64,000 bases of DNA from Squalus acanthias. Its lineage: Eukaryota. Below the pieces are notes generated by a model. It made no database searches, was not told the DNA's origin, and saw only the letters and a list, made by a program, of their open reading frames with translations. The stretch is from positions 63,550,001-63,614,000 of the forward strand of contig CM059439.1 in assembly GCA_030390025.1 (NCBI GenBank), read 5' to 3'. A program made the position numbers and the translations under genes. The first letter of the stretch is position 1. Each line of letters begins with the position of its first letter. Below are positions 1,306 to 62,486 of this stretch, piece by piece.

Positions 1306-2262
1306 GTCACAAGTGGGATGGCCATGACGCCCACCACCTGGCACCCAATAATCTCCAGCACTCTATTTTCCAGCACAGACAGTGGTTGGGTGTCGGCTTG
1401 TCCCCCGCGTTCCTGCTCCCTCCTGTTGTGAGCCACCTTAGCCTGTAAGAGAAAGTAAGGTGTGTGAGTGAGTGTGGAGCAATGTGTTTGGGTGATGTGT
1501 CTGCCATAGTTGAATAGCTGTCATTGTGTGCAAGGTGTGAGATGTGGGTGTGAGGTAGAGATTGTTGGTGGGTGAGTGCTGGGGGTGTGGTGCTTTGACC
1601 AGTGTGTGCAGACTGTGGTTCAGACAGTGGTATGTAGTATTTGTTTAGACATTCACTCACCCTGACCACCCGAGTGAGGTCGTTAAATTTCTTCCTGCAC
1701 TGTGTGTGGGTCCTGGGGACCACAGTGCTGCCCAAGACCTGATGGGAAACCTCCCTCCACATTGCACAGAAGACTTGCGGCGAGGGCCTCCTGCCACTTG
1801 CCGGGTAGAGCACCACCCTCAGTCTCTCCACAGCGGACACCAACTCCTCCAATGCTTGGTCTGAAAATCTGCGGGCTCTCCCCCTGGGGCGTGGATCTGC
1901 CATGAGTACAGCTGGTTGAGTTGTCCAGCTCCTTGGACTTGGCCTGCTCCTGCTTGCTGACACAGGTTCATAGGCAGCAATGCTGAGAATGAGGTTCTGC
2001 AACATGAATGAACCTCCCCTTTCAGAACTGGAAAGAGCCTGTGGCAATGATGACTTGCGATCAGACTGCACCTGATATTGGTTAGCGCTTTGAGTGTAAC
2101 GCCTCTGAGCTAGGCCGTTAGCGCTTGATTTAGCGCTCCTATCATTTCTTTGAGTGATGACACTGAATTTTGTGTGCAGCGAGAGTCATTAGTGCCTGGC
2201 GCTAAATCTCAAACTTTTCCAAAGTTAGCGCCCATTCCTGGGCTATAATGAATTTCTCCCCC
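1306..2262 (-). mobile_element. Truncated PIF/Harbinger element end carrying a Myb/SANT-like (NAIF1/MSANTD-type) gene fragment
   Basis: Exon 1903-1661 encodes MADPRPRGRARRFSDQALEELV...W...RTHTQCRKKFNDL and ends at a gtgagt donor. Exon from 1442 encodes AKVAHNRREQERGG. TIR-like end aatttctccccc at 2251-2262. Confidence 0.75.
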
Positions 2263-4573: not shown

Positions 4574-5063
4574 ACACTGCTCCACGGAAGCTCAGCGTAA
4601 GCTCGAGGAACAGCACCTCATCTTTCGTTTAGGCACGCTACAGCCCTCTGGACTCAATATCGAGTTCAACAATTTTAGATCATAACCTCAGCTCCAATCA
4701 CATTTATATTTTATTTTATCCACCCTTTTATTTGTCCCCCCCACCTTTTTTTTCCTCCTAGAAGCTGGCAGCTGTCCTTCATTCTGCCAGTAGATTTCAC
4801 ACTTCATTCAGCCTTAATCTGTCACATTAACACCACCTCTAGCCTTGCATATCTCTTAATGTCTCTTAATGTCTCTTCATCTCCTCCTTTGTTCCTTTAT
4901 CCCCTCCCCCTTTTCCCAGCTTTACCCTGGCCTTAAATCTATTTGATTTCCAGCTCTTCCCAGTTCTGATGAAAGGTCATCGACCTGAAACGTCAACTCT
5001 CTTTCTCTCTCCACGGATGCTGCCTGGCCTGCTGAGTTTTTCCAGCGTTTTCTGTTGTTATTT
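4574..5063 (+). mobile_element. 5'-truncated Penelope-like element 3' end (GIY-YIG tail plus pLTR)
   Basis: Encodes EAQRKLEEQHLIFRLGTLQPSGLNIEF. 12-bp TSD cccccttctaat at 4562-4573 and 5064-5075. Confidence 0.85.
4961..4998 (+). ncRNA. Minimal type I hammerhead ribozyme (canonical GUC site)
   Basis: AGUU-CUGAUGA-A-AGGUC(AUC)GACCU-GAAAC-GUC|AACU: full core, stem II hairpin, stem I AGUU/AACU. Confidence 0.8.
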
Positions 5064-5094
5064 CCCCCTTCTAATCATCAGTTGAGTGATAACA

Positions 5095-5725
5095 CATAAA
5101 CTGCTGGAAATGCTCAGCAAGTCAGGCAGCATCTGTGGAAAGAGAAGCAGAGTTAATGTTTCAGGTCGATGCTCTTTCATCAGAACGTGAAACATTTACT
5201 CTGTTACTAGTGTCAGCTGTGGCTCAGTTGGTAGCACACTCACCTCTGCGTCAGAAGGTTTGTGGGTTCAAGTCCCACTCCAGGGATATATGCAGTGCTG
5301 AGGGAGTGCTGAACTGTTGGAGGTGCCGTCTTTCGGATGAGACGTTAAACCGAGGCCCCATCTGCTCTCTCAGGTAAAAGATCCCATGCCACTATTTTAA
5401 AGAACAGCAGGGAGTTATCCCCCGGAACCTGGCCAATATTTATCCCTCAACCAACATAACAAAAAAACAGATTATCTGGTCATTATCACATTGCTGTTTG
5501 TGGGGCCTTGCTGTGCGCAAATTGGCTGCCGTGTTTCCCACATAACAACAGTAACTCCACTTCAAAAGTACTTCATTGGCTGTAAAGCGCTTTGAGACGT
5601 CTGGTGGTCGTGAAAGGCGCTATATCAATGCAAGTGTTTCTTTCTCTTTCCGTAAATGCTGCCTGATTTGCTGCGTGTTTCCAGCATTTTATATCAGATC
5701 AGATATCGGCAGTATTTTGTTTTTG
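5095..5725. mobile_element. Fold-back Penelope pLTR derivative interrupted by a SINE; degenerate hammerhead on - strand at 5151-5186
   Basis: Inverted arms gctggaaa..cagca..caggcagcat / atgctgcctg..tgctg..tttccagc lie on either side of the SINE. Confidence 0.7.
5212..5645 (+). mobile_element. Near full-length Deu-domain SINE (SacSINE1-like)
   Basis: A box tggctcagttgg, B box ggttcaagtcc, Deu core, L2-like tail aaggcgctatat..atgcaagt. Confidence 0.85.
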
Positions 5726-5937
5726 AATCAGTGATAGTAGGAATCAGCAATAGTGCCATCAGACAACACCACTGAGCTATTCACCAATGCTAAGTTCAAG
5801 TTGACTAGTGGGCCTTTTCAAAAATGTGATCCAATGAATGGGCGATGCAAGATCATGTGGGGTGCTGTAGCCATTTCTCTGAGGCTGAATTTGACAAATC
5901 CACAGCATTGATTATTTTACATAATTTGAGCTGCAAG

Positions 5938-7320
5938 GTCCCCGGTCTCTCTCACCCCTCCGGTCCCCTCTCTCTTCCCCCTCCGATCTCCAGTCTCTAC
6001 CTTCCCCCCTCAGGTCCCCTCGCTCCCTCTCCCTCCTCTGGTCCCCTCTCTCTCTCTCCCTCCTCCGGTTCCCTTTCTCTCCCTCTCCCTCCTCTGGTCC
6101 CCTCTCTCTCTCTCCCTCCTCCGGTTCCCTTTCTCTCTCTCTCCCTCCTCCGGTCCCCTTTCTCTCTCTCTCCCTCCTCCGGTCCCCTCTCTCTCTTCCC
6201 CCTCCAATCCCCAGTCTCCCTCCCCCCTCCGGTCCCCTCTCTCCCTCCCTCTCCCCTCTGGTCCCCTCTGTCTCCCTCCCCCCTCCGATCCCCTCTCTCT
6301 CTCTCTCCCTCCTCCGGTCCCCTCTCTCCCTCCCCCCTCCGATCCCCTCTCTCTCCCTCCTCCTATCCCCTCTCTCTCCCTCCTCCGATCCCCCCTCTCT
6401 CTCTCTCCCTCCCCCCTCCGATCCCCTCTCTCTCTCTCCTCCGGTCCCCTTTCTCTCTCTCTCCCTCCTCCGGTCCCCTTTCTCTCTCTCTCCCTCCTCC
6501 GGTCCCCTTTCTCTCTCTCTCCCTCCTCCGGTCCCTTCTCTCCCTCCCCCCTCCGGTCCCCTCTCTCTCTTCCTCCTCTGGTCCCCACTCTCCCTCCCTC
6601 CTCCGGTCCCCCCTCTCTCTCTCCCTCCTCCGGTCCCCTCTCTCTCTCTCCCTCCTCCGGTCCCCACTCACTCCCTCCCTCCTCCGGTCCCCACTCACTC
6701 TCCCCCCTCCGGTCCCCTCTCTCTCCTCCAGTCCCCTCTCTCCCTCCCCACTCCGGTCTCCTCTCTCCCGCCCCACTCTGGTCCCAGTCCCCTCTCTCCC
6801 TCCCCCCTCCGGTTCCCTTTCTCTCCCCCCCCCCCCCCAACGCTCTCTTCCCCGTCCCCTCTCTGATCCCCTGTCTCCCTCCCTCCTCCAATTTCCTCTC
6901 TCCCTCCCTCGGTACCCTCTCTTCCCCCAGTCCCCTCTCTCTCCCCCCTCCGATCCCGTCTCCCAGGCCCGTCCAATTCCCTCTCTCTCTCCCTCCAATC
7001 CCTTCTGATCCCCTCTCTCTCCCTCCTCCGGTCCCCTCTCTCTCTCTCTCTCTCCCTCCTCCGGTCCCCTCTCTCTCACACACCCCTCCAATCCCCTCTT
7101 TCCCCCCCAGTCCCCTCTCTCCCCCCTCCGATCCCCTCTCCCTTCCCTCCTCCGGTCCACTCTCTCTCTCCCCCCTCCGATCCCCTCTTTCCCTCCCCCC
7201 TCCGGACCCCTTTCTCCCTCCGGTCCCCTCTTCTCTCTTCCCCCTCCAATCCCCAGTCTCCCTCCCCCCTCTGGTCCCCTCTCTCCCTCCCCCTCCGGTC
7301 CCCTCTCTCCCCCCACCCCC
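5938..7320. repeat. Polypyrimidine minisatellite, unit approximately (CT)n-CCCTCCTCCGGTCCC, about 20-28 bp; resumes at 8256-8345
   Basis: Directly visible. It generates the low-complexity Pro/Ser/Leu and Gly/Glu/Arg ORFs. Confidence 0.95.
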
Positions 7321-7321
7321 C

Positions 7322-8255
7322 GGTAAGAAATAGCTGCTAGACTCAAAAATGGGGTTTTGATTCTTAGAACAGAGACTGATAACAAACTGAAGAGTTGCGG
7401 CCGGGAATGCATGGCAGGAATGTCAGCAAGGTCAGATAACAAGCACAAAAAGACAAATGGCCGAGGCCAGGGCATGGAAGTGATAAGGGAGTCGTAAAAT
7501 GCAAGACAACACAAGATGGTAGAATGATAGTTAGACAATATGGAGCCAGAAAGTCATAAAATGTCCTTAAAGAAACATAACAAGACATTCCTCAGAAAGA
7601 TAAGAGGAAGGCCTTGTCAGCCATGATTGACACCAGGTAATCACCAGCCCACCGAAATAACATATAAAATAGGGGACCGAGAAAGAAATAGTCAGACAGC
7701 TAGGGGCGAAGGCTTCCTCAAGGTGGAAATCAATGCTGGCTTATGCCTAACACCTCGAGGGACGAACTAACAGAAGTGACCAATACAAAAGCAAAATACT
7801 GCGGATGCTGGAAATCTGAAATAAAAAAAGAAAATGCTGGAAATACTCAGCAGGTCAGGCAGCATCTATGGAGAGAGAAACGGAGTTAACGTTTCAGGTC
7901 GATGACCCTTTGTCAGAACTGGAAAAAGCTGGAGATAGAACAGGTTTTTAAAAGAGACAAACGGAAATCTCGTCGGAGAGAAGAGCAGAACTTCTTCAAG
8001 GTGGGCATTCTTAGAACAGAAGTGACTGTTGCTGTAAGCTGCAGAGATCCGCCGACCCGAGACCTCCACACTGTCTCATTGGGCTTCGGGGGTCGTAGAT
8101 CGCTCTCTACTGTCATGGGTTGTATGACTATTATACTTATCTTAACCACATGTAATATCTGATTATGCTTTAAACTGTAGCTCTTTAATAAAAAGCCTTA
8201 CAACTCCTAAGACCCTTTGGGTAATGTGTGTGTGACCTGTGATCTAAACCCTCCA
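7322..8255 (+). mobile_element. Probable solo LTR inserted in the CT-rich repeat
   Basis: Unique sequence interrupting the repeat. TATA (catataaaa, about 7661), AATAAA (about 8186), GT-rich tract, CA end. No clean TG start or TSD. Confidence 0.5.
7781..8014 (-). mobile_element. Internally deleted Penelope mini-element (ORF start fused to pLTR end); hammerhead at 7884-7920 with CUGACAA core mutation
   Basis: MPTLKKFCSSLRRDFRLSL matches the start of the 57057 ORF. Flanked by aacagaagtgac at 7769-7780 and 8015-8026. Confidence 0.8.
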
Positions 8256-8339: not shown

Positions 8340-8580
8340 TCTCCTTACGGAACCGAAGAAAGCGCGGCCCAAACGGCAGGCCACAACTATTTAGTACTGC
8401 GCAGGCGCAGAAGGCCGCAGCGATGTTGGCGCAATCACTCCGTTTGGGTCACAATGAGAGTGAGCGGACTGCGCCTGCGCGAGTTCTCCCCCCATGGAGC
8501 GGTTCGTGCTGAGGGGCAGCGCCGCCGGCCCAGCGCAGCCGGCCAAGGTTTACCGCCAGGCAACGCTCGAGTCTTTAAAG
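8340..8580. promoter_or_regulatory. CpG-rich TATA-less promoter of TCEANC2 with two NRF1-type motifs
   Basis: High CpG density. TGCGCAGGCGCA at 8398-8409 and TGCGCCTGCGC at 8470-8480. Confidence 0.75.
8494..8580 (+). CDS. TCEANC2: TCEANC2 coding exon 1 (MERFVLRGSAAGPAQPAKVYRQATLESLK)
   Basis: Resembles recalled vertebrate N-terminus MDKFVIR...KVYKQATIESLK. Phase-0 donor aag|gtgaag. Missing from the ORF track. Confidence 0.9.
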
Positions 8581-9705
8581 GTGAAGTCCAGAGCTTCTCA
8601 ATTGCGCGGTGGTTTGTAGATGGTGTAAGCTTAAAATCTGGTGTTTGTAAACCCGTGAATCATAGGCCGATCGCAGGTTCCTCGATTTCCTTGAAGACTT
8701 CTCACTGAAGTCTTTTCTGTGTGAGCTTGTTTTGTTCACATTTCCCGGTAATCCTTTGCCGAAGGAGGAAGAAAAACTATTCGTGGTCAGCCAAAAGATT
8801 CTTCTGTGTGGGTATATTTTTTAAGTCTTAATCGTTTTGAGGATCCAGGAGAGACTAGAGTTATGAGTTAATTGTAGTTGCAGATCAATACAGTATGCAA
8901 AATGAACTGTGCAAGTGACCTAGAGGATGGAAAATAGTTTTGGATGGAACGGATGAGGATCTGCACTATTGGTATGAAGGAGGCTCCAAGCACATCTCTT
9001 TGGGCACAGGTATTGGCAGCAAGAACATTTGGTGTTTCAGGAGACCTTTCTGCAGGCAAAAGACACTGCATGAAAAGGGCCCTCGAAACAAGATCTTTCT
9101 TGAAAGTAAATGCTCTTGGGAACAGATGTTGGATTGGAAATGGAAAAATGAATAAAGTCTTTGTTATCGAGTACCAGTTGATTGTTTCTCAACATTTCTG
9201 TCGTGGCCTTGAGTTGCCTGAAAGGTAAAACAATTATGATTTGTTTGAAAACAAATTTGAAAATGCCTCAAAAGATGATAATTAAAATAGAGAAAGTAAA
9301 AACTAATTACATGACAAATGAAAGCTTCCAGGAGTAGATTTAAAATGTGAATGAAATTTGGGGCAAAGACTAGACCAAAATATGGTCTTATGAAAACCAA
9401 TAAAAATAAGATTAAAATTAAAAAACAAAGACAAAATTAAAGTTAATTTTATGGAACTAAAACATCATTCCCAACTCATTCCCTTATTACTCTGTACTGC
9501 CAGATATAAAATTTGTATACATATACCATAGCCCAGTAATTTGAAAACACAGGGAAAATACATTTTACTCTGTGATTTGAATCAAGAATGCCCATGTTCA
9601 TAAGATGTAAAATAGTCCCTATTGATTCCTCTCCAAAATCTTAAACACATTTACACTGAAGTAGTGTTTAAGTGGTAAATTATGTGTTTTTTATTCTCAA
9701 AACAG

Positions 9706-9847
9706 AGGGTTGTGGTGATTGAAGATATTAAGAGATTTAAATCTATATTGGAACTGCCTAGTCAAACAAAGGAAAACTTAATGGAAGCATTACTAGAACT
9801 AAAGAAGAAAATACCATCTCAAGAAGTGTTACGCTCAACTAAAATAG
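9706..9847 (+). CDS. TCEANC2: TCEANC2 coding exon 2 (TFIIS N-terminal-like domain start)
   Basis: cag|[48 protein letters not shown]|gtaaag, 142 bp. Confidence 0.95.
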
Positions 9848-10342
9848 GTAAAGATTATAATGGTACAGTTTTTTGTTTTCAACATTGTAATTTTTCTTCT
9901 GCTAAAATCTTTAAAATGTTGACATTGGATTAAATTATGTCTTTGTAACTTGTTATTTGCATTATTAAAATTGTGCTTGTGCTGCTTATGCCTTTCGAAT
10001 CCAATATTTTGAAGTGTGGCTCATTCCACAGTACCAGTAGGGGAATCAAAACTGGATTGGTGGATTTTTTATCACTGCTGTTGATGCCATTAATTGAGGA
10101 AAAAGAATAGTTTGGGAATTCCTCCAATTTTGTCTCACTGTTTTCCCTCACCCTAAGGGAGAGGTGTCCAAGCATTTTGTTTTCAAGGGCTGTATATACA
10201 AGGGCTCAAGTTGCTGATACTAACGGATGTTGGTATTCTGATTAGAAGTTAATCATCAATAAGGCTACAGACCTTTCCAAACCTCAATTGAAAACAGCAC
10301 AAACCTGCAAATAAGAGATATAAGCACAAATAGGAATGAGTT

Positions 10343-10545
10343 ACAAAGATAAAATACTGCAGATGGTGGAAATCTGAAACATAAACAGAAAATGCTAGAA
10401 ATACTCAGCAGGTCAGGCAGCATCTGTGGAAAGAGAAACAGAGTTCACGTTTCAGGTTGGTGAAAGGACTGAAATGTTAACTCTGTTTCTCTCTTCACAG
10501 ATACTGCCTGACCTGGTGAGTATTTCCAGCATTTTGTGTTTATAT
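10343..10545. mobile_element. About 200-bp fold-back mini-element made from the Penelope pLTR end
   Basis: Inverted arms of about 75 bp. 14-bp TSD aataggaatgagtt at 10329-10342 and 10546-10559. Confidence 0.85.
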
Positions 10546-10777
10546 AATAGGAATGAGTTGCCTGGGCTTTCAGGACAGGGATTGCCCAAGCTTGGCAGTC
10601 GCCTGTTTAGACAATCTGAACTAAGGAGATGTAGAAATTTGCTACTGCAAAATTCTTCACCTACTGGCCTAACTATTGGATGGGAAAGCTGTTTATTGAG
10701 AAGAGTGGATGTATAATGACAGCGTAGGTTTCACACATGGACTCTGGGCAATCAGTTGTACAAACACTTTCATGTTA

Positions 10778-12680
10778 TCAACAGCAACTTATATTTATAT
10801 AGCGCCTTTAACGTAATAAAATGCCCCAAGGTGCTTCACAGGAGTCTTATAAAAAAAACAAAATTTGACACTGAGCCATAAGGAGATGTAAGGGCAGATG
10901 ACCAAAAGTTTGGTTGAAGAGGTAGGTTTTAAGGAGCGTCTTAAAGGAGGAAAGAGAAGTGGAGAGGCAGCGAGATTTAGGGAGGGAATTCCAGAGCTTA
11001 GGATCTAGGCAGCTGAAGGCACGACCACCGATGATGGAGCATTTAAAATCGGGGATGTTCAAAAGACCAGAATAGGTGGAGCGCAAAATCATGGGGGATT
11101 ATAGGGCTGGAGGAGATTACAGAGATAAGGAGAGACGAGGCCATCGAAGGATTTGAAAACAAGGATGAGAATTTTAAAATCGAGGCGTTGCTTAACTGGG
11201 AGCCATTGTAGATCAGCAAGCATGGGAGATGGGTGAGTGTGACTTGGTGCAAGTTAGAATAAAGTGGCAGAGTTTTGGATGACCTCAGGTTTATGGAGGG
11301 TAGAACTAGGGAGGCCGGCCAGGAGTGCGTTGGAATAGTCAAGTCAAGAGGTGGTAAAGGCCTGGATGAGGGTTTCATAAGCAGATAAGTTGAGATAAGG
11401 CTGGAGACGGGCAATATTACAAAGGTGGAAATGGGTAGTCTTCATGTTGGAACGGATATGAGGTAGGAAGCTCAATTCGTGATCAAAATTGACACCAAGG
11501 TTACGAACAGACTTGGTCAGCCTTAGACAGTTGCTGGGGAGAGAGATTGAATCAGTGGAAAGGGAACGGAGTTTGTGGTGTGAACCGAAGACAATGGGCT
11601 GGATTTTGATACTGGGGCGGGTTGGGGTTGTGTCATCCGCTTTTCGTGTTATCCACCCGACTGCAATTGGATGTGGGCGATTGATGCAATTTTCACCTAA
11701 TTGGGCAATTGAGTTCCAGCATGTGGGAACCCATGAACCAATTAGTGTTTTCAGTCTGAAAGTCGCCTCTGATGATGTCATCATTGCTGCTGCATTGAAG
11801 GTCTTCAGAGACTGCCTGGCCTTTGCTGTGAGAGGACCTGGATGCAAAATGAGCAGCAACTCAGAGAGAGAGAGAGAATTTTTTTTGCACCAGCACTCCC
11901 AGATATGTCTCCTCCATCACTCCCAGATGCCTGCCAGCCATTCACTCACTGATAGTAAGCCCAGCCACTGATAGTCAGCTATCCAAATGTGCTCCCGCCA
12001 GGTTTCACAATCGTGGTTCAGAACAGGCGTGCTTCACGTAGAACAAGGGTTAACATCACAAAGGCCTTTCAAAATGGCATTATAGAGCCAATTTAGTGCT
12101 TGTTAAGGGTCTTAACAGCCTATCCCGTCTCTTAAAGGCGGGACGCAGTCGGGACCAGCAGACACGATTTAATGAAAATTGCGTGGAGGCGGGATGGAGG
12201 CGGACTTGTGCCCGCCCGCCAGTTTTTGCAATTTTAACCCCCCACACGCCTCCAAACCCACCTCCACGGGTCAATGAAAATCCAGCCCAATGGCTTCGGT
12301 CTTCCTGATATTTAATTGGAGAAGATTTCTGCTCATCCAGTGCTGGATATCGGACAAGCAGTCTGATAGTATAGAGATGGTGAAGGGTTTGAGAGAGGTG
12401 GAGGAGAGATAGAGCTGGGTATTATCAGCGTACATGTGAAAACTCACGTTGTGTTGCCAGATGATGTCACTGAGGGGCAGCTTGTAGTTGAGAAATAGGA
12501 GGGGGCCAAGGCTCGATCCTTGGGGGACACCAGAGGTGACAGTGCGGGATCAGGAAGAAAAGCCATTGCAGATGATTCTATGGTTACGACTGGAAAGATA
12601 GGAATGAAACCAGGCGAGTGCAGTCCCATCCGGCTGGACGACGGTGGAGAGGCGTTGGAGCAGAATTTTGTGGTCAACTC
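10778..12680 (-). mobile_element. L2 LINE 3' portion, interrupted by a MITE
   Basis: VRNLGV.FD.ELSF.PHI, ETLIQAFTTS, GGRAFS...PKLWNSLP..FKTLLKTYLF. Tail caacttatatttatatagcgccttt on +. Confidence 0.85.
11596..12288. mobile_element. PIF/Harbinger-type MITE
   Basis: Perfect 12-bp TIR gggctggatttt/aaaatccagccc with 3-bp TSD AAT. The host L2 rejoins as gaagacAATggcttcgg. Confidence 0.9.
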
Positions 12681-13679
12681 GCCTTTATTTGTAACCCTCA
12701 CGTTTCTAAAATTTCACACCCATCACAGTTTCATCAATAGGTAGTCCTATAAAGAGGAACTGATCAGCTGACTGGTTTAGTAATATGCTGTGACATTGCA
12801 TGGTTGGACTGAAAATTATGTTTGCAATTTGCACAACTAGATCCTGTTCTCAGTAGATAGTGCAACCATTGAGGTAGCATCAAGTGGAGAAGATGAACTT
12901 CCACTGAGCGAAAATGATAAGATTCAGGAGGAAGCATAAGGGACCCAAGAGTGTACAGCTAAAAGTCTTAAAAAAACAAGACGAAAGAATGAAAATAAAT
13001 GGACAGATCAAAGTACTTGTGTGTCCAGGTTTGAAGCACGGTACGAACTCTCAAAATCTTCTAGCCATAGCATCCTACGTGACTCCGAAAAGGTGATAGA
13101 TATGTTGTGACCAATGCAGAATAAGATTGTTGTGGGGTTACTTAATGGATCAATGAAAGAGTAACTGCATTGCATGGTACAGGGGCTGAAACTTACAGGT
13201 CAGCAAGATCCCAGGTTTGATCTTTGGTCTGTGATGAGTTTGGTGATTTGTGCCTGGGCAGCACTGGGTGCTGTATTTGGCATTGATGTCTCTCTGCTGG
13301 ATAGAAGTTCCTGTAATGGAAATCCGTCCTATTTCCAATTATAACATTTCTACATTCTGTGCTTTCAATTAGATTGTAGCAAAGTTAGAGCTCTGGGATT
13401 TAAAAATTGAAGTCCTGGCTGCTGCTTCTGTAGTTTTCCTTTGTCCTTTTGGCTTCAGAGCCTATTGGCAAAGCAAAAATACGCTTCTGTCCTGAAAGTT
13501 TACATATTGATGTCAAAGTGTGATCCTAATGCTGTGGAAGGTCCTGTGGTTGAGATTGCCTGCAGTGAGCAATAAATAGCTCATTTTTAATTACAGATGT
13601 AGCATCAGCCATCCTTTCTTATCAATAGCATCCTGCTTTGACTTATGTTGATTTGAATCTACCTCCTCTCATTTCTCAG

Positions 13680-13873
13680 GGCACACTGTGAACAAGATGC
13701 GTAAAAATTCAGACCCCGAAGTGGCCGAGCTTGCTCAAGTTGTTTTCACAATGTGGAAAACCTTCATAAAAGAAAATAGAAATAAGCAATCCATAGAGGT
13801 GCGATGTGATTCTAAAACGGAGAGTCTTAGGAGGAATGCGCGAAAACTGTTAACTGCAGCCTTGGAACTGGAG
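13680..13873 (+). CDS. TCEANC2: TCEANC2 coding exon 3
   Basis: cag|(G)HTVNKMRKNSDPEVAELAQVVFTMWKTF...SIEVRCDSKTESLRRNARKLLTAALELE|gtaatt, 194 bp, phases consistent. Confidence 0.95.
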
Positions 13874-14860
13874 GTAATTTAAATAAAAAGCCCTCTACAC
13901 TGAGTTCTAGAAAGAGATTAAAACAGGATTTCTATATGTATATTTTAAATTGGAGGCTTAAAGGGGAAGAAATGCATTTTTTACCCAACGTGGTCCCATT
14001 GTTTATACATTTGTAGAAGAAAATAAGTCTTACCAGAAAACCTTTGACTTTATTAAAAAAAAATTGCCAAAATGGAAACTTTATAGTAGGGTCTCACTCC
14101 ATGTAAGCCTGTTCATCAATTGTGGGGTGTGGAGTTGTTCAATTGCGCTAGCCTTAGGGCTACTTCACACTAGCCCAACGGCAGCACAAGAGCCTCCGGA
14201 CTTCAGGGAAACAACAAGCTGGGATTTCTTTTTGTTCTTGGGCTCTGGGTAAGCCAGTATTTATTGACCATCCCTAGTTGCCCTGAAGACATTAAGAGTC
14301 AGTCATATAGTGTGGGACTGGAGTCGCATGTAGGCCAGATTGGGTAAGGACAGCAGGTTCTCTTCCCTGAAGGACATTAGTGAACCAGTTCGGTTTTTAC
14401 AATAATCCAGCAGATTTCATGGTCATTTCCCAGCTTGTAGCATGGGCTGGATAAGTCTGGAGCAGTCCTTGGGCCAATTTGAAGTCACACCCTTGCTATT
14501 TGTAATAGGCATCCCAGGACATTCCTTGTAATTGAGGTCACTAAAGCACCCTATGAGGGAGGGAGGAAAACCCTAATCAGAATGAGCATGTCTTCCACAT
14601 CGCTGCATTTAAAAAAAAAAGGCAGTCATTTTTGACTTGTATGAATAGGCATGCTTTGTTGCATTACTTCTAGTCATCTACTGTGCTACATAACCTTCCA
14701 ATGAGTTTCACTGTTTGTAACCACTATTTCAGGGTACTTTGTGTGGATGTGCTGCTTTTAGCATTTAACGTCAGATTATTAGTTTGTACAGGTCTTGCAT
14801 ATTTTTACCACTGCCTACTATAAATAAATACATTGTTCAATTATATAATCTTTTTTATAG

Positions 14861-15049
14861 CATGATCACCCTCTGATTGAAAACATAGAGCGAGAGGTTT
14901 TTCATCAGTGTTCTCGTCTGATCAACATCTCCTACCGACGGACAGTACGAGCGCTGGTCTTTACTTCAAAACATAAGCCTGAAGTCCGAGAGCAAGTTAA
15001 AACCTACAGACTCCCAGTGAAGCAGCTTGTTGAAAACCACAAGAAATGA
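14861..15049 (+). CDS. TCEANC2: TCEANC2 final coding exon
   Basis: tag|[62 protein letters not shown]. Total CDS 612 nt = 203 aa. Confidence 0.95.
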
Positions 15050-33842: not shown

Positions 33843-34021
33843 CTGGGTCTTCGTTCCGCAGGCATCAAACCGTGAGATTATTTTGTATGCTGAGCCAAAT
33901 ACCTGGGCCGTACAGCCCTGCCTTCCTAGATAAATGTTGCTTCGACTGAGCGAAGGAAGAGCCTGCACAGCAATCTGAATCTGGAAATCTGTTCTAGTGC
34001 AGCTGATGTTCATGGGAACGA
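33843..34021 (-). CDS. CDCP2: CDCP2 exon 5 (ZP-N-like segment)
   Basis: (V)VPMNISCTRTDFQIQI...LGRQGC...RFDACGTKTQ, AG/GT boundaries, phase 1 to 0. Confidence 0.9.
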
Positions 34022-34114
34022 CTGAAACAAATAAAAGAAGCAAAACTCAATTAATACTCAGTAGCTCTGGCTGCATCTGTTACACAGAATAATCCGCAGA
34101 ATACTGAAGATTAG

Positions 34115-34385
34115 TGGGCCTGATTACTCAGTTAGTAAATACACTGCCCAGTGTGGTACTGGGCTCAGTGATTCAGTTAGTAAATACACTGCCCAGTGTG
34201 ATACTGGGTTCAGTGACTCAGTTAGTAAATACACTGCCCAGTGTGGTACTGGGTTCAGTGACTCAGTTAGTAAATACACTGCCCAGTGTGGTACTGAGCT
34301 CAGTGAATCAGTTAGTAAATACACTGCCCAGTGTGGTACTGAGCTCAGTGACTCAGTTAGTAAATACACTGCCCAGTGATACTAG
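34115..34385 (+). repeat. 45-bp minisatellite, about 6 copies, derived from a SINE tRNA head
   Basis: Unit actcagttagtaaatacactgcccagtgtggtactgRgctcagtg starting at 34126, 34171, 34216, 34261, 34306 and 34351. Confidence 0.95.
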
Positions 34386-34399
34386 GTCCATGGTTCAGT

Positions 34400-34830
34400 T
34401 GCCTTGTGTGCCAGGTGATTCAGTTGGTAAACGATGTGGTACTGAGCGACACAGACCAGGAAGATCCCTGGTTCAACCCCTGATCTGTGTTAAGTTAGTT
34501 TATCTCAGCTGGGGCAGCAGTAGGGACGCTACAAAAGACCTCAAGGTCCCCCATACCCCGGGTGAGGTAGGACAAGAATCAGCCAGTGCTCCCTCTCTGG
34601 ATCATTTTCTAGTTTTCTCTGCTGGAAAGTGTACACGTGTGGACGCAAGTGTAGATGAAAGGACAGGATTAAGCTTGGCTGTGTTGGCCCCCCACAGTTG
34701 AACAGCTTGCCAACACAACTCCATAGGTTCACACATAAAGAGCAGCCACTTGGGTAAAGTAACGGAGGGTGGCCTGTGCTTGTGGAACCTTACCACAGCA
34801 TGGTTAGGAAGAAAATCGGAGGAAAAATGA
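34400..34830 (+). mobile_element. Old SINE family B copy
   Basis: A-box-like tgattcagttgg, B-box-like ggttcaaccc, family body motifs. Confidence 0.65.
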
Positions 34831-38130: not shown

Positions 38131-38586
<456 letters not shown>

Positions 38587-47432: not shown

Positions 47433-48370
47433 TAGCAAAATACTGCGGATGCTGGAAATCTGAAATAACAACAGAAAATGCTGGAAACACTCAGCAGGTC
47501 AGACAGCATCGACGAAAGAGAAACAGTCAATGTTTTGAGTCGGGGACCCTTCGTCAGAACTGGAAAAGGTTAGGGAAGAGAGATTTTTAAGTAGGGACAG
47601 GGAGGAGGGGAGGAAAGAACAAAGGGAAGGTCTGTGATAGGATGGAAGGCAGGAGAGATTGACAAAAGGGATGATGGTGCAAGGCAAAAGGAGAGCTAAT
47701 GGGACAAGTTAAGAAACAAAAGATGGCTCTAGGTGAGGTGTGAATGATGATGACAGCATCATTAATAGCTACCATGTGAGGAAACAAGAGAAAAAAATTA
47801 AAAAATATAAAGAAATACAGGGGCCAATTTATAGTCTGAAATTGTTGAACCCTATGTTAAGTCCAGATGGCTGTAAAGTGCCTAATAGAAAGATGAGGTG
47901 CTGTTCCTCGAGCTTATGTTGAGCTTCATTGGAACAGTACAAGAGACCGAGGACGGAGAGGTCAGAGTGGGAGTGGAGGGGAGAATTAAAGTGACAGGCG
48001 ACCGGAAGCTCGGGGTCACGCTTACGGACTGAACGGAGGTGTTCCGCAAAGCAGTCACCCAATCTGCGTTTGGTCTCCCCAATGTAGAGGAGACCGCATC
48101 GTGAGCAGCGAATACAGTATACTAAATTGCAAGAAGTACAAGTAAATCACTGTTTCACTCTTCCCTAAAAACAAATTCTCCTGCCTTCCATCCTATCACA
48201 GACCTTCCCTTTGTTCTTTCCTCCCCTCCTCCCTGTCCCTGCTTAAAAATCTCTCTTCCCTAACCTTTTCCAGTTCTGACGAAGGGTTTGACCCGAAACG
48301 TTGACTCTGTTTCTCTCTCCTCGAATATGCCTGACCTGCTGAGTGTTTCCAGCATTTTCTGTTGTTATTT
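47433..48370 (-). mobile_element. Penelope fragment with inverted pLTR ends
   Basis: GIY-YIG C-terminal part on - (47829-48155). Inverted arms about 47465-47655 and 48178-48370. 14-bp TSD aataaaaaaaggaa at 47419-47432 and 48371-48384. Confidence 0.9.
48271..48306 (+). ncRNA. Minimal hammerhead ribozyme motif (variant stem II)
   Basis: AGUU-CUGACGA-A-GGGU(UUG)ACCC-GAAAC-GUU|GACU. Confidence 0.7.
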
Positions 48371-53065: not shown

Positions 53066-53443
<378 letters not shown>

Positions 53444-54777: not shown

Positions 54778-56883
54778 TGCTGAGCATATAAAGAAAACTA
54801 AAAACCCAGACAGGAAAGGCAAAATTATATAATTCTTTACAGCAACATATGAAGTAACACACAATGGTTGTAGAATTAATAGTGGCATTAATAATTCACT
54901 AGTAGTCTGAATTAGAAACTTGATCCATCTCTGGTTCCTTTCAGTAAATATTAATGAGCTGGATCCAGTGTCCTCACCCTCCACACTGCACTATACAACT
55001 TGTTGTACAATCTTTGGAACAATGACGTAAATATTTAATTTGCTCAAGTCATAAATATTCTCTTGTAAATTTAGGAATGATCCCATATTCATTAATTACT
55101 TTATGGAAATCTTTACAATTTAACATTAAAAATTGATCCATTTAACAGATGCTGGTAAGTACAAAAGAACCCAAAGGGATTTTAAAAGCTCTGAGGTTGC
55201 TAGCTTTAAAGACTGTAATTAGAAGCCCATGGACATCGGGTCCATGAGTCCTCTCCCCTGCACCCCTCCCCAACCTTGGTAGTACCCCCCTTTTAACTCA
55301 AGTTTTCTTTTGATGATTTTGAATAATGATTTTTGAAAATCTTCGCAAAATTCAGTTCAATTTTCTCTTCTTAAGGCAATGACTGCACCTTATCAGTCCT
55401 AGGTAACCCTAGAAAGTATGCATGTGTAGATATTGAGGAAAAATATGATCGGGCTCAGCTGTGAGGATCTTCATGGTTGAACAGCTTGCCGACACTCAAT
55501 ATCTAAGCTCATACATGAAGAATAGCTACTTGGGCATGGTACTAGTAGACAGCTGGCACCCACGGAACATATCCTAGCAAGATTGGGCGTGTTCAGCAGA
55601 GGAGAGGAGAAAATGCATGCAAGAAAAGGGTGTTGGATTAAAAAAAGGAATGCAACAATTTATGTAGACCATCTGATCAGAATCAATAGCTCTTTTAATA
55701 ATTTAATCAATTTAGAGGTCAAATGGGGGCAGTTGTTTTGAGTGTGTTAGGAATGTGAGATTTTTATTCCCAGAATTGTAACTGAAAGGAACATTGCAGT
55801 CTGTCTGCTGTGTCTCCCTAATCCTGGCAGGAGATACTTCAACGTAGTGAACAAGAATATATTAATTTTCAGAATTTACCATATGGAGCGCAGTATCTTC
55901 AAAGCAAGGTGAAAAGTAATACAATGTCCATGTCTTACCATATCTTTCTTCACTGATTTAACTTTTAACTGTGACTAACATACTTGTTCCATGCTGTTCA
56001 ATTGAATGATCGCTTGATACCAACTGAGCCCTGGTGTGTTAAGTCTTGTAATTTACAGTCCAACCATCTCAGGCCTGGTCTTTCCCCAACCAGGATCAGT
56101 TACATCAATTTCTGATGGTACCAATCTACAGCCATCAGGCACGAATACCCTGCCCATCACAATCCGCTTGCTATAACACACTGTTAGTGTACACAGGCTA
56201 CTCCTCATACCTCCCCCCTTCCCACTGTCCAGGGCCCCAAACACCCCTTCCAGGTGAAACAGCGATTTACTTGTACTTCTTGCAATTTAGTATACTGTAT
56301 TCGCTGCTCACGATGTGGTCTCCTCTACATTGGGGAGACCAAACACAGATTGGGTGACCGCTTTGCGGAACACCTCCGTTCAGTCCGTAAGGGGGACCCC
56401 GAGCTTCCGGTCACCTGTCACTTTAATTCACCGCTTCACTCCCACTCAGACCTCACCGTCCTCGGCCTCTTGCATTGTTCCACGGAAGCTCAGCGTAAGC
56501 TCGAGGAATAGCACCTCATCTTTCGATTAGGCACTTTACAGCCTTCTGGGCTCAACATAGAGTTCAACAATTTCAGATCATAACCTCAGCCCCTATCATA
56601 TATATATATTTTTTATCCACACTCTTTGTCTGTCTTTTTTTTTCTTCCCCACATGGCAGCTGTCTTTCATTCTGCCAGCGCAATTTACACTTCATCTAGA
56701 GCCATCCTTTGTTTCTTAACCTGTCCCATTACCATCTCCTTTTGCCTTGAATATCTCTTAATGTCTCTTAACCTCTCCTGCCTTCTATCCTATCACAGAC
56801 CTTCCCTTTTGTTCTTTCATCCCCTCCCCCCTTTCCCAGCCTCTACACTTGCTTAAAAATCTGTTCCATTTCCTGCTTTTTTC

Positions 56884-56921
56884 CAGTTCTGACGAAAGGT
56901 CATCGACCTGAAACGTTAACT
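56884..56921 (+). ncRNA. Minimal hammerhead ribozyme in the 5' pLTR
   Basis: AGUU-CUGACGA-A-AGGUC(AUC)GACCU-GAAAC-GUU|AACU. Confidence 0.78.
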
Positions 56922-57056
56922 CTGTTTCTCTCTTCACAGATGCTGCCTGACCTGCTGAGTATCTCCAGCATTTTCTGTTTTTATCTCAGATTTCCAGCAT
57001 CTGCAGTATTTTCTTCTTGTATTAGTGTTTAATTCACTGCCACCTCTCTTCCAGGA

Positions 57057-59786
57057 ATGCCCACCTTGAAGAAGTTCTGCTCTTCTCTCCGATGGGAGTT
57101 CCGTTTGTCTCTTTTACCTTGTTCATCTTCATTGCTTTCTGTCTCCCTTCTCATGTTAGATCAGGTATCTACCAAAACTCGCTTTCACAGCCACAATACT
57201 TTCCTCAGCAACTGTTTCCGGCTCCGACTTACTCCACGTGGATTCCAACTGAAATTCCACCCTTTGTGTTTTGGATCCACCCAGGACTACAGATATCTCC
57301 AAGATATTCAGCGCTCCTCGAACCACTGCTCTCGCCGTATCCTGAGATCGACGCTGAATGCCATGCGCCGCCACATGAACACTCTCGACCTCTCTCTTCA
57401 GCAGCACCAACTCACTCTATCTCAAAGCTGTCCTGGTCCGCAGTTCCATTTCATCCTTCGCCTCATCCGGCACTTTAACAAAAAACTTTTTTTCTTCCTT
57501 TCAGGTGTCAAGGATCGCAAGCTTCAACAACTCTTGGACACCAACGGCCCTCTGGAACCTTCTTCCCCTTCACTTTCCTCTGACCCCATCCCTTCTCCCA
57601 ATCTCATCCCCTGCCGCGTTTTCAGTATCCCCTCTGACCTTCCCCTCTCTGACCCCGAACGATCAGTCCTTAGCAAAGGCCTGAGCTTCATCCCCTTACG
57701 CCCCCACCTCAATGAATTTCGAGCTCGGCACGATGCTGAGCTCTTTTTCCGCCGCCTTCGTCTCCGTGCCCACTTCTTTGGCCAGGAGTCTTCCCCACGC
57801 ATGGCTGACCCTTTCTCCCGCTTTCAGAATTCTCGTTCTACCTGGACCCCTCCCTCTGGCCTCTTATCCTCCCTAGATCTTTTCATTGCAAACTGCCGGC
57901 GTGACATCGGCCGTCTCCATTTCTCTGCTCCCCTCACTCACTCCAACCTTCCTCCCTCTGAACTTGCAGCACTCCATTCTCTCAGATCCAACCCCGACAT
58001 TGTCATTAAACCTGCTGACAAGGGTGGTGCTGTTGTTGTTTGGCGAACCGACCTCTACCTAGCGGAAGCTGAACGCCAACTCTCCGACACCTCCTCCTAC
58101 CTCCGCCTGGACCATGACCCCACCACTGAACATCAAGCCACCATTTCCAAGACTGTCACTGACCTCATCTCCTCTGGAGATCTTCCCCCCACGGCCGCCA
58201 ACCTCATAGTTCCCCAACCCCGCCCAGCCCGCTTCTACCTCCTTCCCAAGATCCACAAACAGGACTGCCCTGGTAGACCCATCGTTTCAGCCTGTTCTTG
58301 CCCCACAGAACTTATCTCTTCCTATCTCGACTCTATTTTTTCTCCCCTTGTCCAGTCTCTTCCCACTTACATCTGTGACTCTTCCGACGCCCTCCGCCAC
58401 TTTAACAGTTTCCTGGCCCCAACCGCCTCCTTTTCACCATGGACGTAGAATCCCTCTACACCTCCATCCCCCACCAGCATGGCCTGAGGGCACTCCGCTT
58501 CTTCCTTGAACAGAGACCCAACCAGTCCCCATCCACCACCACCCTCCTCCACCTGGCTGAACTTGTTCTCACATTGAACAACTTCTCCTTTGACTCCACT
58601 CACTTCCTCCAAATCAAAGGTGTTGCTATGGGAACCCGCATGGGTCTTAGCTATGCCTGCCTTTTCGTGGGATATGTGGAACACTCTTTGTTTCAGTCCT
58701 ACTCAGGTCCCCTCCCTCACCTCTTTTTCCGGTACATTGATGACTGTATTGGTGCCGTTTTCTGCTCTCGCCCTGAACTGGATAATTTCATTCACTTTGC
58801 TTCCAATTTCCACCCTTCCCTCACCTTCACATGGTCCAGCTCCGACTCTTCCCTTCCCTTCCTCGACTTCTCCGTCTCCATCTCTGGGGATAGGTTATTG
58901 ACAAACATTCACTACAAGTCCACTGACTCCCACAGCTACCTGGACTACACTTCCTCCCACCCCGCCTCCTGTAAGGACTCTATTCCATTCTCCCAGTTTC
59001 TCCGTCTCCGCTGCATCTGCTCTGACGATGCCACCTTCCATACCAGTGCTTCTGACATGTCTTCCTTTTTCCTCAACCGAGGATTCCCCTCTACTGTGGT
59101 TGACACGGCCCTTGACCGTGTCCGTTCCATCTCCCACACTTCTGCCCTCACCCCTGCCCCTCCCTCCCGGAACCACGACAGAGTTCCCCTTGTCCTCACC
59201 TTTCACCCCACAAGCCTCCACATTCAACGGATCATCCTCCACCATTTCCGCCACCTCCAGCGTGATCCCACCACCAAACGCATCTTCCCCTCACCTCCAC
59301 TTTCAGCATTCCGTAGGGACCGCTCACTCCGCAACACCCTAGTCCACTCCTCTATCGCCCCCAACACCCCCACCCCTTCGCCCGGCACCTTCCCGTGCAA
59401 GCGCAGGAGATGCAACACATGCCCTTATACCTCCCCCCTTCCCACTGTCCAGGGCCCCAAACACCCCTTCCAGGTGAAACAGCAATTTACTTGTACTTCT
59501 TGCAATTTAGTATACTGTATTCGCTGCTCACGAAGTGGTCTCCTCTACATTGGGGAGACCAAACGCAGATTGGGTGACCGCTTTGCGGAACACCTCCGTT
59601 CAGTCCGTAAGGGGGACGCGAGCTTCCGGTCGCCTGTCACTTTAATTCACCGCTTCACTCCCACTCAGACCTCACCGTCCTCGGCCTCTTGCATTGTTCC
59701 ACTGAAGCTCAGCGTAAGCTCGAGGAATAGCACCTCATCTTTCGATTAGGCACTTTACAGCCTTCTGGGCTCAACATAGAGTTCAG
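57057..59786 (+). pseudogene. Penelope RT plus GIY-YIG endonuclease ORF (frameshifts near 58410 and 59617, stop at 59728)
   Basis: KPADKG, LPKIHK, GRPIVS, MDVESLYTSIP, GVAMG, RYIDD, Cys linker CKRRRCNTC, NLVYCIRC..LYIGETKRRLGDRFAEH. Confidence 0.92.
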
Positions 59787-61303
59787 TAATAGAAATAGTA
59801 GATGCATTGCTGGTCATCTTCCAAAATTCTATAGACTCTGGAACAGTACCCATGGATTGGAGGGTAGCTAATGTTACCCCACTATTCAAAAAAGGTGGTA
59901 GAGAGAAAACGGGGAATTATAGACCGGTAAGCCTGACATCGGTAGTGGGGAAAATGCTAGAGTCCATTATAAAAGATGTAATAGCAGAGCACTTGGAAAA
60001 CAGTGACAGGATCGGACAAAGTCAACATGGATTTACAAAAGGTAAATCGTGCTTGATTAATCTACTGGAATTTTTTGAGGATGTAACTGGTAAAATAGAT
60101 AAGGGAGAACCAGTGGATGTGGTGTATTTGGACTTTCAGAAGGCTTTCGATAAGGTCCCGCATAAGAGATTAGCGTGTAAAGTTAAGGCACATGGGATTG
60201 GGGGCAAGGTATTGACTTGGATAGAGAACTGGTTGGCAAACAGAAAGCAGAGTTGGAATAAATGGGTCTTTTTCCGAGTGGCAGGCAGTGACTAGTGGGG
60301 TACCGCAGGGATCGGTCCTAGGACCCCAGCTATTCACAATATATATTAATGATCTAGACGAGGGAATTGGATGTAATATCTCCAAGTTTGCAGACGACAC
60401 AAAGCTGGGTGGGAGTGTGTGCCGTGAGGAGGATGCCGAGAAACTCCAGTATGATTTGGACAGGTTGGGTGATTGGGCAGAAGCATGGCAGATGCAATAC
60501 AATGTGGATAAATGCGAGGTTATCCACTTTGGTGTCAAAAACAGGAAGGCAGATTATTATCTGAATGGCAATAGATTGGGAGAAGGGGAAGTGCAACGAG
60601 ACCTGGGTGTCCTTGTGCACCAGTCGCTGAAGGTAAGCATGCAGGTGCAGCAGGCGGTTAAGAAGGCAAATGGTATGTTGGCCTTCGTAGCGAAAGGGTT
60701 CGAGTACAGGAACAAGGGTGTCTTGCTGCAGTTGTACAGGGCCTTGGTGAGACCACATCTTGAGTATTGTGTGCAGTTTTGGTCGCCTTATCTGAGGAAG
60801 GATGTTCTTGCCATGGAGGGAGTGCAGCGAAGATTCACCAGGCTGATACCTGGGATGGCAGGAATGACGTATGAGGAGAGATTGGGGCGATTGGGCTTAT
60901 ACTCGCTGGAGTTTAGAAGAATGAGAGGGGATCTCATTGAAACTATTCTAACAGGACTAGACACAGGAAGGATGTTCCCGATGGCCGGGGAGTCCAGAAC
61001 CAGGGGTCACAGTCTAAGGATAAGGGGTAAGCCATTTAGGACTGAGATGAGGAGGAATTTCTTCACCCAGAGAGTGGTGAACCTGTGGAATTCTCTACCA
61101 CAGAAGGCAGTAGAGGCCAATTCATTAAATATATTCAAGAAGGAGTTAGATATATTTCTTAAAGCTAAAGGGATCAAGGGATATGGAGAGAAGGCAGGGA
61201 CAGGGTACTGAATTTGGATGATCAGCCATGATCTCATTGAATGGCGGAGCAGGCTCGAGGGGCTGAATGGCCTACTCCTGCTCCTATCTTCTATGTTTCT
61301 ATG
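59787..61303 (+). mobile_element. Young CR1 LINE (HER1-like) inserted into the Penelope 3' repeat
   Basis: Largely open RT ORFs (YLDFQKAFDKVPH, FADDTK) and (CTATGTTT)n tail. Splits gagttca|acaatttcagat. Confidence 0.92.
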
Positions 61304-61614
61304 TTTCAACAATTTCAGATCATAACCTCGGCCCCTATCATATATATATATTTTTATCCACACTCTTTGTCTGTCTTTTTTTTTCTACCCCACATGGCAG
61401 CTGTCTTTCATTCTGCCAGCGCAATTTACACTTCATCTAGAGCCATCCTTTGTTTCTTAACCTATCCCATTACCATCTCCTTTTGCCTTGAATATCTCTT
61501 AACCACTTCCGTCTTCTATCCTATCACAGACCTTCCCTTTTGTTCTTTCATCCCCTCCCCCCTTTCCCAGCCTCTACACTTGTTTAAAAATCTGTTCCAT
61601 ATCCTGCTTTTTTC

Positions 61615-61652
61615 CAGTTCTGACGAAAGGTCATCGACCTGAAACGTTAACT
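61615..61652 (+). ncRNA. Minimal hammerhead ribozyme in the 3' pLTR
   Basis: Identical to 56884-56921. Confidence 0.78.
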
Positions 61653-62302
61653 CTGTTTCTCTCTTCACAGATGCTGCCTGACCTGCTGAGTTTCTCCAGC
61701 ATTTTCTGTTTTTATTTCTACTCCTCACTACTTTGGTGTTAGTCACTCTATCTTCTCTATTCCTCACAAGTGGCATAAAATGGTATATTGAACTTTCCTC
61801 ATTATGTATACTAGTTATACAACAAATTTATTGATTGAATTAGTAGGTATGTTTTAAAATTGAGTTTATTTTCATTAGGAGGATAAAAGGTGCCATGTGA
61901 TTTGCCCCACATAGTGACCGTTCACCCTTTGATATGACTTTATTACAGACAATGGAAAGTAGAGGTTGCTTTTCTGATCCTGAGAGAAGTGTCCCAATTA
62001 TACTATAGCTTTTGCATTAATAGTATGCAGTTTCCCTGTTGCATTATTGTGTAAAAGTGTGGTATAATTGGGCAGGGATGTTGTCAATCTGATGGTAGAT
62101 TAGGTTTTGGCAAGCGGTGAGAGTCCCTTTGTATTTGGACATCAATGAGCCAACCTCAGCGCCTCCATGTAAGCACATATGCATAAAGCTCCACTGTGCC
62201 TGCCCACAGCATGATGTGGAGCCAGCAGTATAACTCCATGCTGCCCGTATGACCGCTCGAAGTGGATACCAGTGTCAGTTTAACATCACCATTAAACACC
62301 TA

Positions 62303-62486
62303 AGTAAAAAGCAAAATACTGCAGGTGCTGGAAATCTGTAAACAAAAACAGAAAAAAGGTGGAAATACTTAGCAGCTCAGGCAGCATCTGTGGAGAAACA
62401 GAAGTCAACCTTTCGAGTCTGGCCTAAAACATCGATTTCTGCATCTACACAGATGTTGCCTGAGCTGCTGAGTATTTCCACCTTTT
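62303..62486. mobile_element. About 185-bp fold-back mini-element from the Penelope pLTR end
   Basis: Inverted arms aaaaggtggaaatactt..cagctcaggcagcatctgtg / cacagatgttgcctgagctgctgagtatttccacctttt. 15-bp TSD accattaaacaccta at 62288-62302 and 62487-62501. Confidence 0.85.

Follow-up and report, generated by a model that had tools for sequence, protein, structure and literature searches.

The window, by which we mean the whole 64,000-nucleotide stretch analysed here, contains a host gene whose exons encode the TFIIS helical-bundle (Med26) and TFIIS_M domains and which we take to be TCEANC2. The focal element (10343-10545) sits in an intron of this gene, flanked by its second and third coding exons (Table 1). 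Converging on the host gene is a reverse-strand gene with three CUB-domain exons (35353-35865, 38128-38586 and 53063-53443), presumably CDCP2, the neighbour of TCEANC2; two inserts, 47433 and 56208, and possibly a third, 62303, are located inside or upstream of that gene. The surroundings also include a DDE_Tnp_4 transposase frame (43398-44357, forward strand) facing a Myb/SANT-like frame, so that with the frames at 46059-46757 and 1307-2185 (both reverse strand) there are one transposase and two Myb/SANT-like frames in all, which we assume to belong to Harbinger-type elements. About 1.4 kb of a pyrimidine-rich tandem repeat with 23-31-bp units occupies 5900-7350.

Table 1. Coordinates of the features discussed in the text; inserts are called by their first position, and "parent" positions refer to the PLE at 56208-61717
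Feature	Position	Strand	Remarks
Host gene coding exons	8494-8580, 9706-9847, 13680-13873, 14861-15049 (span 8494..15049)	+	
Focal element, left TSD	10329..10342	+	14 bp, AATAGGAATGAGTT, exact repeat
Focal element, tail-bearing arm	10343..10463	-	parent 56900-57021; from hammerhead loop II to tail end
Focal element, junction	10459..10468	+	text read directly; putative assignment
Focal element, short tail-less arm	10469..10545	+	parent 56908-56984
Focal element, right TSD	10546..10559	+	exact copy of left TSD
Second small head-to-head insert, diverged subfamily	62303..62486	.	aligned to parent
62303, tail arm	62303-62419	-	junction in stem II/loop II
62303, short arm	~62421-62486	+	junction in stem II/loop II
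62303, TSD	62288-62302/62487-62501		exact 15 bp
Older head-to-head insert	5088..5733	.	earlier given as 5095-5725
5088, tail-less arm	5088-5186	-	parent 56985 down to 56886; CTGATGA core intact
5088, tail arm	5188-5208 + 5641-~5730	+	parent 56909-~57025
SINE-like repeat splitting 5088 tail arm	~5211-5640		
Longer head-to-head insert in LINE-like DNA	47433..48370	.	
47433, tail arm	47433-48158	-	parent 56254-57012+, including coding 3' end (330 bp)
47433, inverted arm	48159-48370	+	~200 bp
47433, TSD	47419-47432/48371-48384		exact 14 bp
Parent PLE, partial tandem	56208..61717	+	coordinate reference
Parent, truncated upstream copy (5' pLTR)	56208-57020		
Parent, coding region in two frames	57033-58448, 58406-59749		
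LINE fragment interrupting parent	~59790-61305		
Parent, 3' pLTR	ends at 61717		without tail
Parent, TSD	56198-56207/61718-61727		10 bp
Minimal type I hammerhead motif	56885..56921	+	read directly from sequence
Hammerhead, helix I	56885-88/56918-21		
Hammerhead, core CTGACGA	56889-95		
Hammerhead, helix II	56897-901/56905-09		
Hammerhead, GAAAC	56910-14		palindromic helix III; predicted cut after 56917
Candidate core promoter	56853..56891	+	TTAAA at -29 to -32, Inr-like CCAGTTC, +1 = A56885
Direct 5'-truncated tail-less PLE insert	4574..5063	+	12-bp TSD 4562-4573/5064-5075
Direct permuted short PLE insert	7781..8014	-	12-bp TSD 7769-7780/8015-8026

Seven PLE inserts were found in the 64-kb window, of which three are direct (4574, 7781 and the parent, with TSDs of 12, 12 and 10 bp). 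The parent has duplicated parts of 97% identity, and its coding region falls into Atlas RT/HTH_animal/GIY-YIG clusters at 0.96. Pfam returned GIY-YIG above the cut-off (E 7.7e-6) and RVT_1 below it (E 0.0034), and a PDB sequence search with the RT-EN frame gave no match. As judged from its frames, the parent is an EN+ PLE, with RT followed by a C-terminal GIY-YIG domain and a pLTR tandem carrying a hammerhead motif. The translation of its second frame has CX4CXXC upstream of GIY-YIG; since CX2-5CxxC in the RT-EN linker is described as a mark of Neptune/Nematis (Craig et al. 2021, PMC8557442), we place the parent in Neptune/Nematis by its linker and call it Neptune-type below. The insert at 7781 joins parent 57041-57116 upstream of 56853-57026 and could be a template jump or the monomer of an internally deleted, retrozyme-like tandem; it retains the whole hammerhead-like core. 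The insert at 4574 and the SINE-interrupted doublet at 5088 are only 12 bp apart (4574-5733 together), a spacing which suggests local re-targeting.

The hammerhead motif of the pLTR has the same design as the minimal hammerheads described from metazoan PLEs (Cervera and De la Pena 2014, PMC4209133). No hammerhead was matched by Rfam across the whole window, and the monomer fold is unremarkable (z -1.65); both are expected of a dimer-dependent motif. Overlapping its 5' end is a candidate core promoter, of which TTAAA and CCAGTTC are present in all six window copies that retain the region. The spacing of the two fits the TATA and initiator consensus. A sigma-70 promoter scan, whose model is inapplicable to a eukaryote, found no match. 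A rotifer pLTR with a TATA/Inr pair has been described (Arkhipova et al. 2013, PMC3846280), and from the promoter-like words and from the loose 5' ends that gather at this site in three of four sequencing runs (see below) we regard a transcript start near A56885 as an even prospect.

Aligned within the window against the parent, the focal element resolves into two head-to-head PLE-end arms, the tail-bearing one with 88% identity over 121 nt and the short one with 92% over 77 nt. This arrangement, inverted copies of the pLTR terminus with one arm longer, had been proposed in a first-pass annotation for four inserts, and alignment to the parent bears it out in all four: the tail, which corresponds to parent 56985 to about 57020 (30-40 nt), sits on exactly one arm each time. 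The long TSD then ascribed to each insert is exact in three (14, 15 and 14 bp), and an abutting exact repeat of at least 14 bp arose in only 22 of 20,000 random position pairs of the window; 5088 has an abutting repeat of only 4-5 bp, and a 7-bp repeat overlaps the element's own ends. Loss of the CUGANGA core, also proposed, holds for 62303. The core is intact in the tail-less arm of 5088, and at 10459-10467 the focal element probably keeps a decayed remnant that is like parent 56891-56899 at 7 of 9 letters. The letters there point to about five positions common to this remnant and the other arm's end, probably with a small deletion across stem II.

The insert at 47433, once listed as a larger relative, shares the head-to-head layout and the 14-bp TSD. 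By its sequence, however, it is no mini-element: it is an ordinary copy, truncated at the 5' side, which retains the coding 3' end and has an inverted arm in addition, and it bridges the direct inserts and the small doublets. When its empty site was sought among the other LINE copies of the window, only the locus itself matched. Its arms (47463-47656 against 48177-48370) differ in 16 columns, 15 of them clustered within 45 columns, which could reflect two source RNAs, inter-arm conversion or a mutation hot spot. The clustered stretch runs from helix II to just past GATG, with one difference in the 110 columns before it and none in the 40 after, and about four of the differences are CpG-type; the arms of 62303 have a similar inner bias. 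No additional doublet came up when the window was searched with a profile. A faint old PLE-end remnant lies at 33998-34080 (E 2e-4), abutting a 45-bp tandem repeat at 34081-34423.

The in silico fold of the focal element is a hairpin with some 75 pairs (-111.9 kcal/mol, z -15.7; none of 200 shuffles equalled it), and 62303-62486 folds at -91.8 (z -13.3), again with none of 200 shuffles as good. For the proposed dsRNA hairpin in TCEANC2 intron 2, the predicted fold is strong and the position is between coding exons 2 and 3, with the gene name being our presumption. In the Rfam search of the whole window the hairpin gave one weak match to a miRNA model (E 0.72, far under the gathering score). 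The arms of the focal element have no A>G excess (1 of 7 and 0 of 5 changes), and inherited A-to-I editing was rejected on these grounds.

Base-by-base reading of the junctions, carried out for the four elements, placed the inner ends of the two arms on the parent at 56900 and 56891-56908 in 10343, at about 56905 and 56905 in 62303, at 56886 and 56909 in 5088, and at 56254 and about 56760 in 47433. None of the six element pairs has a junction in common. The inner ends of all six small arms fall within 56886-56909, 8-32 nt upstream of the predicted cut; the tail-less arm of 5088 terminates exactly at 56886, and in 10343 and 62303 the two arms meet inside the helix II inverted repeat. None of the six ends at the predicted cut itself (56918), so that mapping the junctions against the cleavage site leaves the earlier link to the ribozyme a positional one. 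Run-off from ribozyme-cleaved RNA was rejected for the same reason, and ribozyme cleavage has no visible part in the formation of the doublets.

The arms of 10343 are 88-92% identical to the parent and to the 7781 copy and 72-75% identical to the arms of 62303. The two arms of 62303 jointly carry variants seen in no other copy, and those of 47433 do likewise. Because of this low identity and these element-specific variants, we place the elements in different PLE subfamilies and not under one fold-back ancestor. The notion that they form a family is not supported by these data: the four junctions differ, the subfamilies are distinct, and no junction dominated among the listed joints of four sequencing runs. 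A 21-nt motif of the pLTR had no match in viral contigs; its six matches in metagenome contigs were dismissed as chance (60-67% GC, only 21-31 nt matched).

The contigs of these runs, four of 24 listed, were aligned to parent 56600-57200 at 80% likeness: X1 and X5 (two samples of organism A), X10 (organism B) and X17 (organism E), with 67617, 51053, 92470 and 101483 contigs. The listing covers 15 joints out of 383 and 24 loose-end rows out of 2955; the contigs are fragmented in repeats, X1 is under-counted and depth does not equal copy number. Loose 3' ends occur at 56982-84 and at 57012 in all four runs (409+970 and 925 contigs in X1), and since the loose letters at 57012 continue the tail, its true end should lie near 57020. 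In the window the recurrent 3' end sites are about 56984 and 57012-57025, and the direct inserts end at the same two sites, those ending at 5063 and 61717 at the short one and 7781 with the tail. At 56885/56886, three of the four runs have an accumulation of loose 5' ends whose flanks are long and show no consensus (191, 305 and 237 contigs); the loose-end rows listed for X1 include no such pile-up. Flanks at 56885/6 are A-rich and the 3' flanks T-rich, where simple TSD-bounded solos would predict otherwise. Summed depth rises 6- to 16-fold from bin 56852-72 to bin 56894-914, and past bin 56999-57019 it drops 7- to 31-fold within one bin. Part of the step up in depth may come from other subfamilies whose upstream pLTRs differ, as consensus-bearing loose ends at 56878 suggest.

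Strand-changing joints number three among the 15 of 383 listed, and none of them is a window junction or is shared with one. Joint 56903/56939 was seen in 2, 1, 7 and 4 contigs of X1, X5, X10 and X17, and joint 56905/56938 in 2, 2, 10 and 4; combined as 56903-5/56938-9 they amount to 4, 3, 17 and 8 contigs (32 in total), in all four runs and three organisms. A 4-nt inverted match (56901-4/56939-42) adjoins this recurrent joint, and we do not claim it as the cause, as the joint's orientation is unfixed and the sums fit inexactly. The third, 56886/56946, is a single X1 contig at depth 507, where the X1 pieces listed have depths of 4-26, and was not seen in the second organism-A sample (55% read); it is possibly an amplified doublet. 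That no junction dominates across the run contigs is moderately supported for the joints listed, while a junction common to copies at 10% divergence could be hidden by blurring in the contigs. In X10, the only one of the four runs with this feature, two contigs (depth 186 and 119) jump back from 57089-57090 to 56918, over 172-173 nt and with 3-4 letters between; 56918 is the base after the predicted ribozyme cut, and a trace of cleaved or circular RNA or a small tandem repeat are possible explanations.

Taken together, we consider the doublets probably to be independent, extremely 5'-truncated insertions of Neptune-type PLEs in the inverted form that is usual for the class, and, with slightly more confidence, to be by-products that were dead on arrival. 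An understanding of how they might arise can be drawn, by analogy, from the biochemistry of an anole PLE, although that source element is a Poseidon and the parent here is Neptune-type. In vitro, both strands of the target are cut and extended by the anole protein, for which a dimer has been modelled; it uses two internal RNA start sites that bound the tail, requires RNA to +172 though starting at +111-118, and can dispense with ribozyme cleavage (Frangieh et al. 2024, PMC11167929). By the same logic, the PLE protein would nick both target strands 10-15 bp apart, which would give the TSD, and reverse transcription from two internal RNA sites 30-40 nt apart would give one tailed and one tail-less arm. 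If the transcript began near A56885, start sites so close to the promoter would limit the cDNAs to at most about 100 and 135 nt, which would explain inserts of about 200 bp with inner ends in the hammerhead; as the hammerhead would form the first 35 nt of the RNA, run-off within it would crowd the ends there. We hold this promoter-proximal step to be an evenly balanced proposition. With both nicks primed, the two cDNAs would be joined at their 3' ends, which would yield a TSD-flanked doublet some 200 bp long. Their inner ends could be held by short complementarity, most easily in the helix II inverted repeat, which would be the nearest for pairing two same-sense cDNA ends or one fold-back; such a manner of joining has, in our view, an even chance of being right, and we give the same odds to independent priming of the two arms over a fold-back. 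Where a unit is built like 56208-61717, the first start-site copy alone would have the downstream sequence that is needed. The small inserts should not move again, because they are without a TATA-like box and without sequence downstream of the start sites.

The double-priming model has its closest competitor in self-priming, in which a cDNA or antisense RNA would fold at the helix II palindrome and copy itself into the second arm, with an endonuclease resolving the far end to leave the tail on one side. This variant keeps the by-product status and is no exclusive alternative, and we consider it a serious, if somewhat less probable, route. The site at which the arms of 10343 and 62303 meet, the helix II inverted repeat, accords with it, as does the containment of the tail-less arm in the tailed one in 62303 and 47433, which a cDNA fold-back predicts; all four elements are one-tailed, for which an independent choice between two about equally used sites gives about 5% (X1 counts). 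Palindromes at inverted junctions were read as self-priming by Arkhipova et al. (2013), who favoured an antisense template (PMC3846280). Against this, the arms of 5088 each hold sequence absent from the other (56886-56908 in the tail-less arm only, the tail in the other only), and those of 10343 probably do likewise, so that the self-priming put forward earlier misfits 5095-5725 in its simple cDNA form. The model could be saved by a deletion that later removed the centre of the hairpin, or by antisense RNA as the template, but the short arm also ends where tail-less direct inserts end. As for the 5' pile-up, it is unlikely to mark the 3' splice site of a pLTR intron or RT stalling on a folded ribozyme. 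Positions 56884-56886 can be read as a pyrimidine tract plus CAG acceptor in 6/6 copies, the 47433 subfamily has a branch-like CTAAC, and an intron of D. virilis ends at the 5' end of helix I (PMC4209133). On the other hand, the loose ends have no common upstream exon (agreement 0.33-0.34), 56400-56884 contains a single donor-like word, which falls within coding sequence (56495), the 15 joints listed of 383 include none to 56887, and TTAAA stands at TATA spacing in every one of the six copies; an RT that stalls should do so on meeting the structure's 3' edge (56921) and not its 5' edge.

The first-pass annotation had left two origins side by side, a recurrent by-product, which we favour, and a non-autonomous hairpin retro-parasite, whose master fold-back RNAs would be copied in trans by PLE proteins and keep a fixed junction. 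Three small elements of like size and layout in 64 kb, the recurrence of 56903-5/56938-9 across runs and organisms, and the high depth of 56886/56946 in X1 would suit such a parasite, and both PLE-derived retrozymes (bioRxiv 10.64898/2026.07.22.740005) and pLTR-driven trans-mobilisation (PMC3846280) have been described. Yet no junction is common to the four window elements or the three listed strand-change joints, the elements come from different subfamilies, and the focal arms bear no editing scar. Moreover, the elements have no promoter box and none of the sequence past the RT start sites that the anole protein requires, and the recurrent joint reaches at most 10 contigs per row against about 1000 for single loose-end sites. 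We therefore give the parasite little probability, and no more to the narrower proposal that a minority of doublets form a replicating, retrozyme-like fold-back class with a fixed junction, for which 56903-5/56938-9 and 56886/56946 would be the candidates. Non-LTR retrozymes themselves were rejected on the head-to-head layout and the broken cores of 10343 and 62303. A MITE, or another derivative of a DNA transposon, with captured PLE ends serving as its terminal inverted repeats, would likewise be short, palindromic, non-coding and placed in AT-rich sites, but we consider it hardly credible and rejected it, since matching termini and a short fixed TSD are both absent. The arms are unequal, their termini differ by the tail and are not mutual inverted copies, and the small elements are continuous with 47433-48370, which has coding sequence. 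The earlier reading as retrotransposition products and not MITEs is thereby upheld: most of the copies have TSDs (three of four), these are long, variable (14, 15 and 14 bp; 10, 12 and 12 bp in the direct inserts) and unrelated in sequence, and both ends are PLE 3' ends.

Run-off combined with double priming would account for the size of the doublets, for the clustering of their junctions and for tails on one side, with no need of a new replicon. As objects, the doublets are ordinary for PLEs, and their value is that of a natural data set: the origin of PLE inverted copies and one-sided tails is called unresolved in PMC8557442 and PMC11167929, and with three doublets in 64 kb the genome offers many junctions for weighing double- against self-priming and promoter-proximal run-off. 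Such inserts are also easily misannotated as MITEs. Inverted Penelope copies yield siRNA in flies (PMC3681739), and by analogy intronic hairpins as dense as these, with their 75 or so pairs, could become substrates for editing or for siRNA pathways. A literature search (few subscription papers, without Repbase) found no description of a fold-back, retrozyme-like PLE parasite and no account of a palindromic PLE mini-family, of PLE twin priming, of a mapped pLTR start or of shark-type Neptune elements. What our study adds is the model of run-off and double priming and two candidate multi-copy junctions.

Among known systems, twin priming of L1 offers a mechanistic parallel: both target strands prime cDNA, which is joined by microhomology and leaves an inversion without duplication. 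Here, too, both strands would prime and microhomology would join the products, but the same 3' segment is present twice. The doublets are the published pattern of an inverted pLTR plus tail at its shortest (PMC3846280, PMC8557442). Typical PLEs are described with an inverted pLTR, a 31-bp one-sided tail and an 8-10-bp TSD in PMC3846280, and with an inverted copy, a one-sided tail of 30-40 bp and a variable TSD in PMC8557442 and PMC8969392. The canonical EN+ PLE unit of these accounts shares the head-to-head copy, the tail at one end, the long variable TSD, the palindrome or overlap at the junction and the partial tandem of the parent. It differs in that here both arms are cut to 65-135 nt and the unit is all hairpin, and the TSDs of the rotifer examples are 8-10 bp as against 14-15 bp. 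PAc, the Poseidon PLE of Anolis carolinensis (PMC11167929), resembles the present case in a hammerhead just upstream of two tail-bounding RT sites, in genomic ends on both sites, in AT-rich targets and in a ribozyme cut that is unused, whereas the parent has the Neptune/Nematis CX4CXXC linker. The metazoan PLE hammerheads of PMC4209133 have the same type I core, 4-bp helix I, extra base before helix II and palindromic helix III; among them are motifs paired across opposite strands at distances of 100-700 bp and many that occur singly, left by truncated PLEs, while neither arm of 10343 or 62303 has a whole ribozyme. Finally, the non-LTR retrozymes reported by Li et al. (2026, bioRxiv 10.64898/2026.07.22.740005) are, like the doublets, short, non-coding, pLTR-derived and hammerhead-related, but they are described as head-to-tail tandems with a whole ribozyme in each unit, where the doublets are head-to-head with broken cores.
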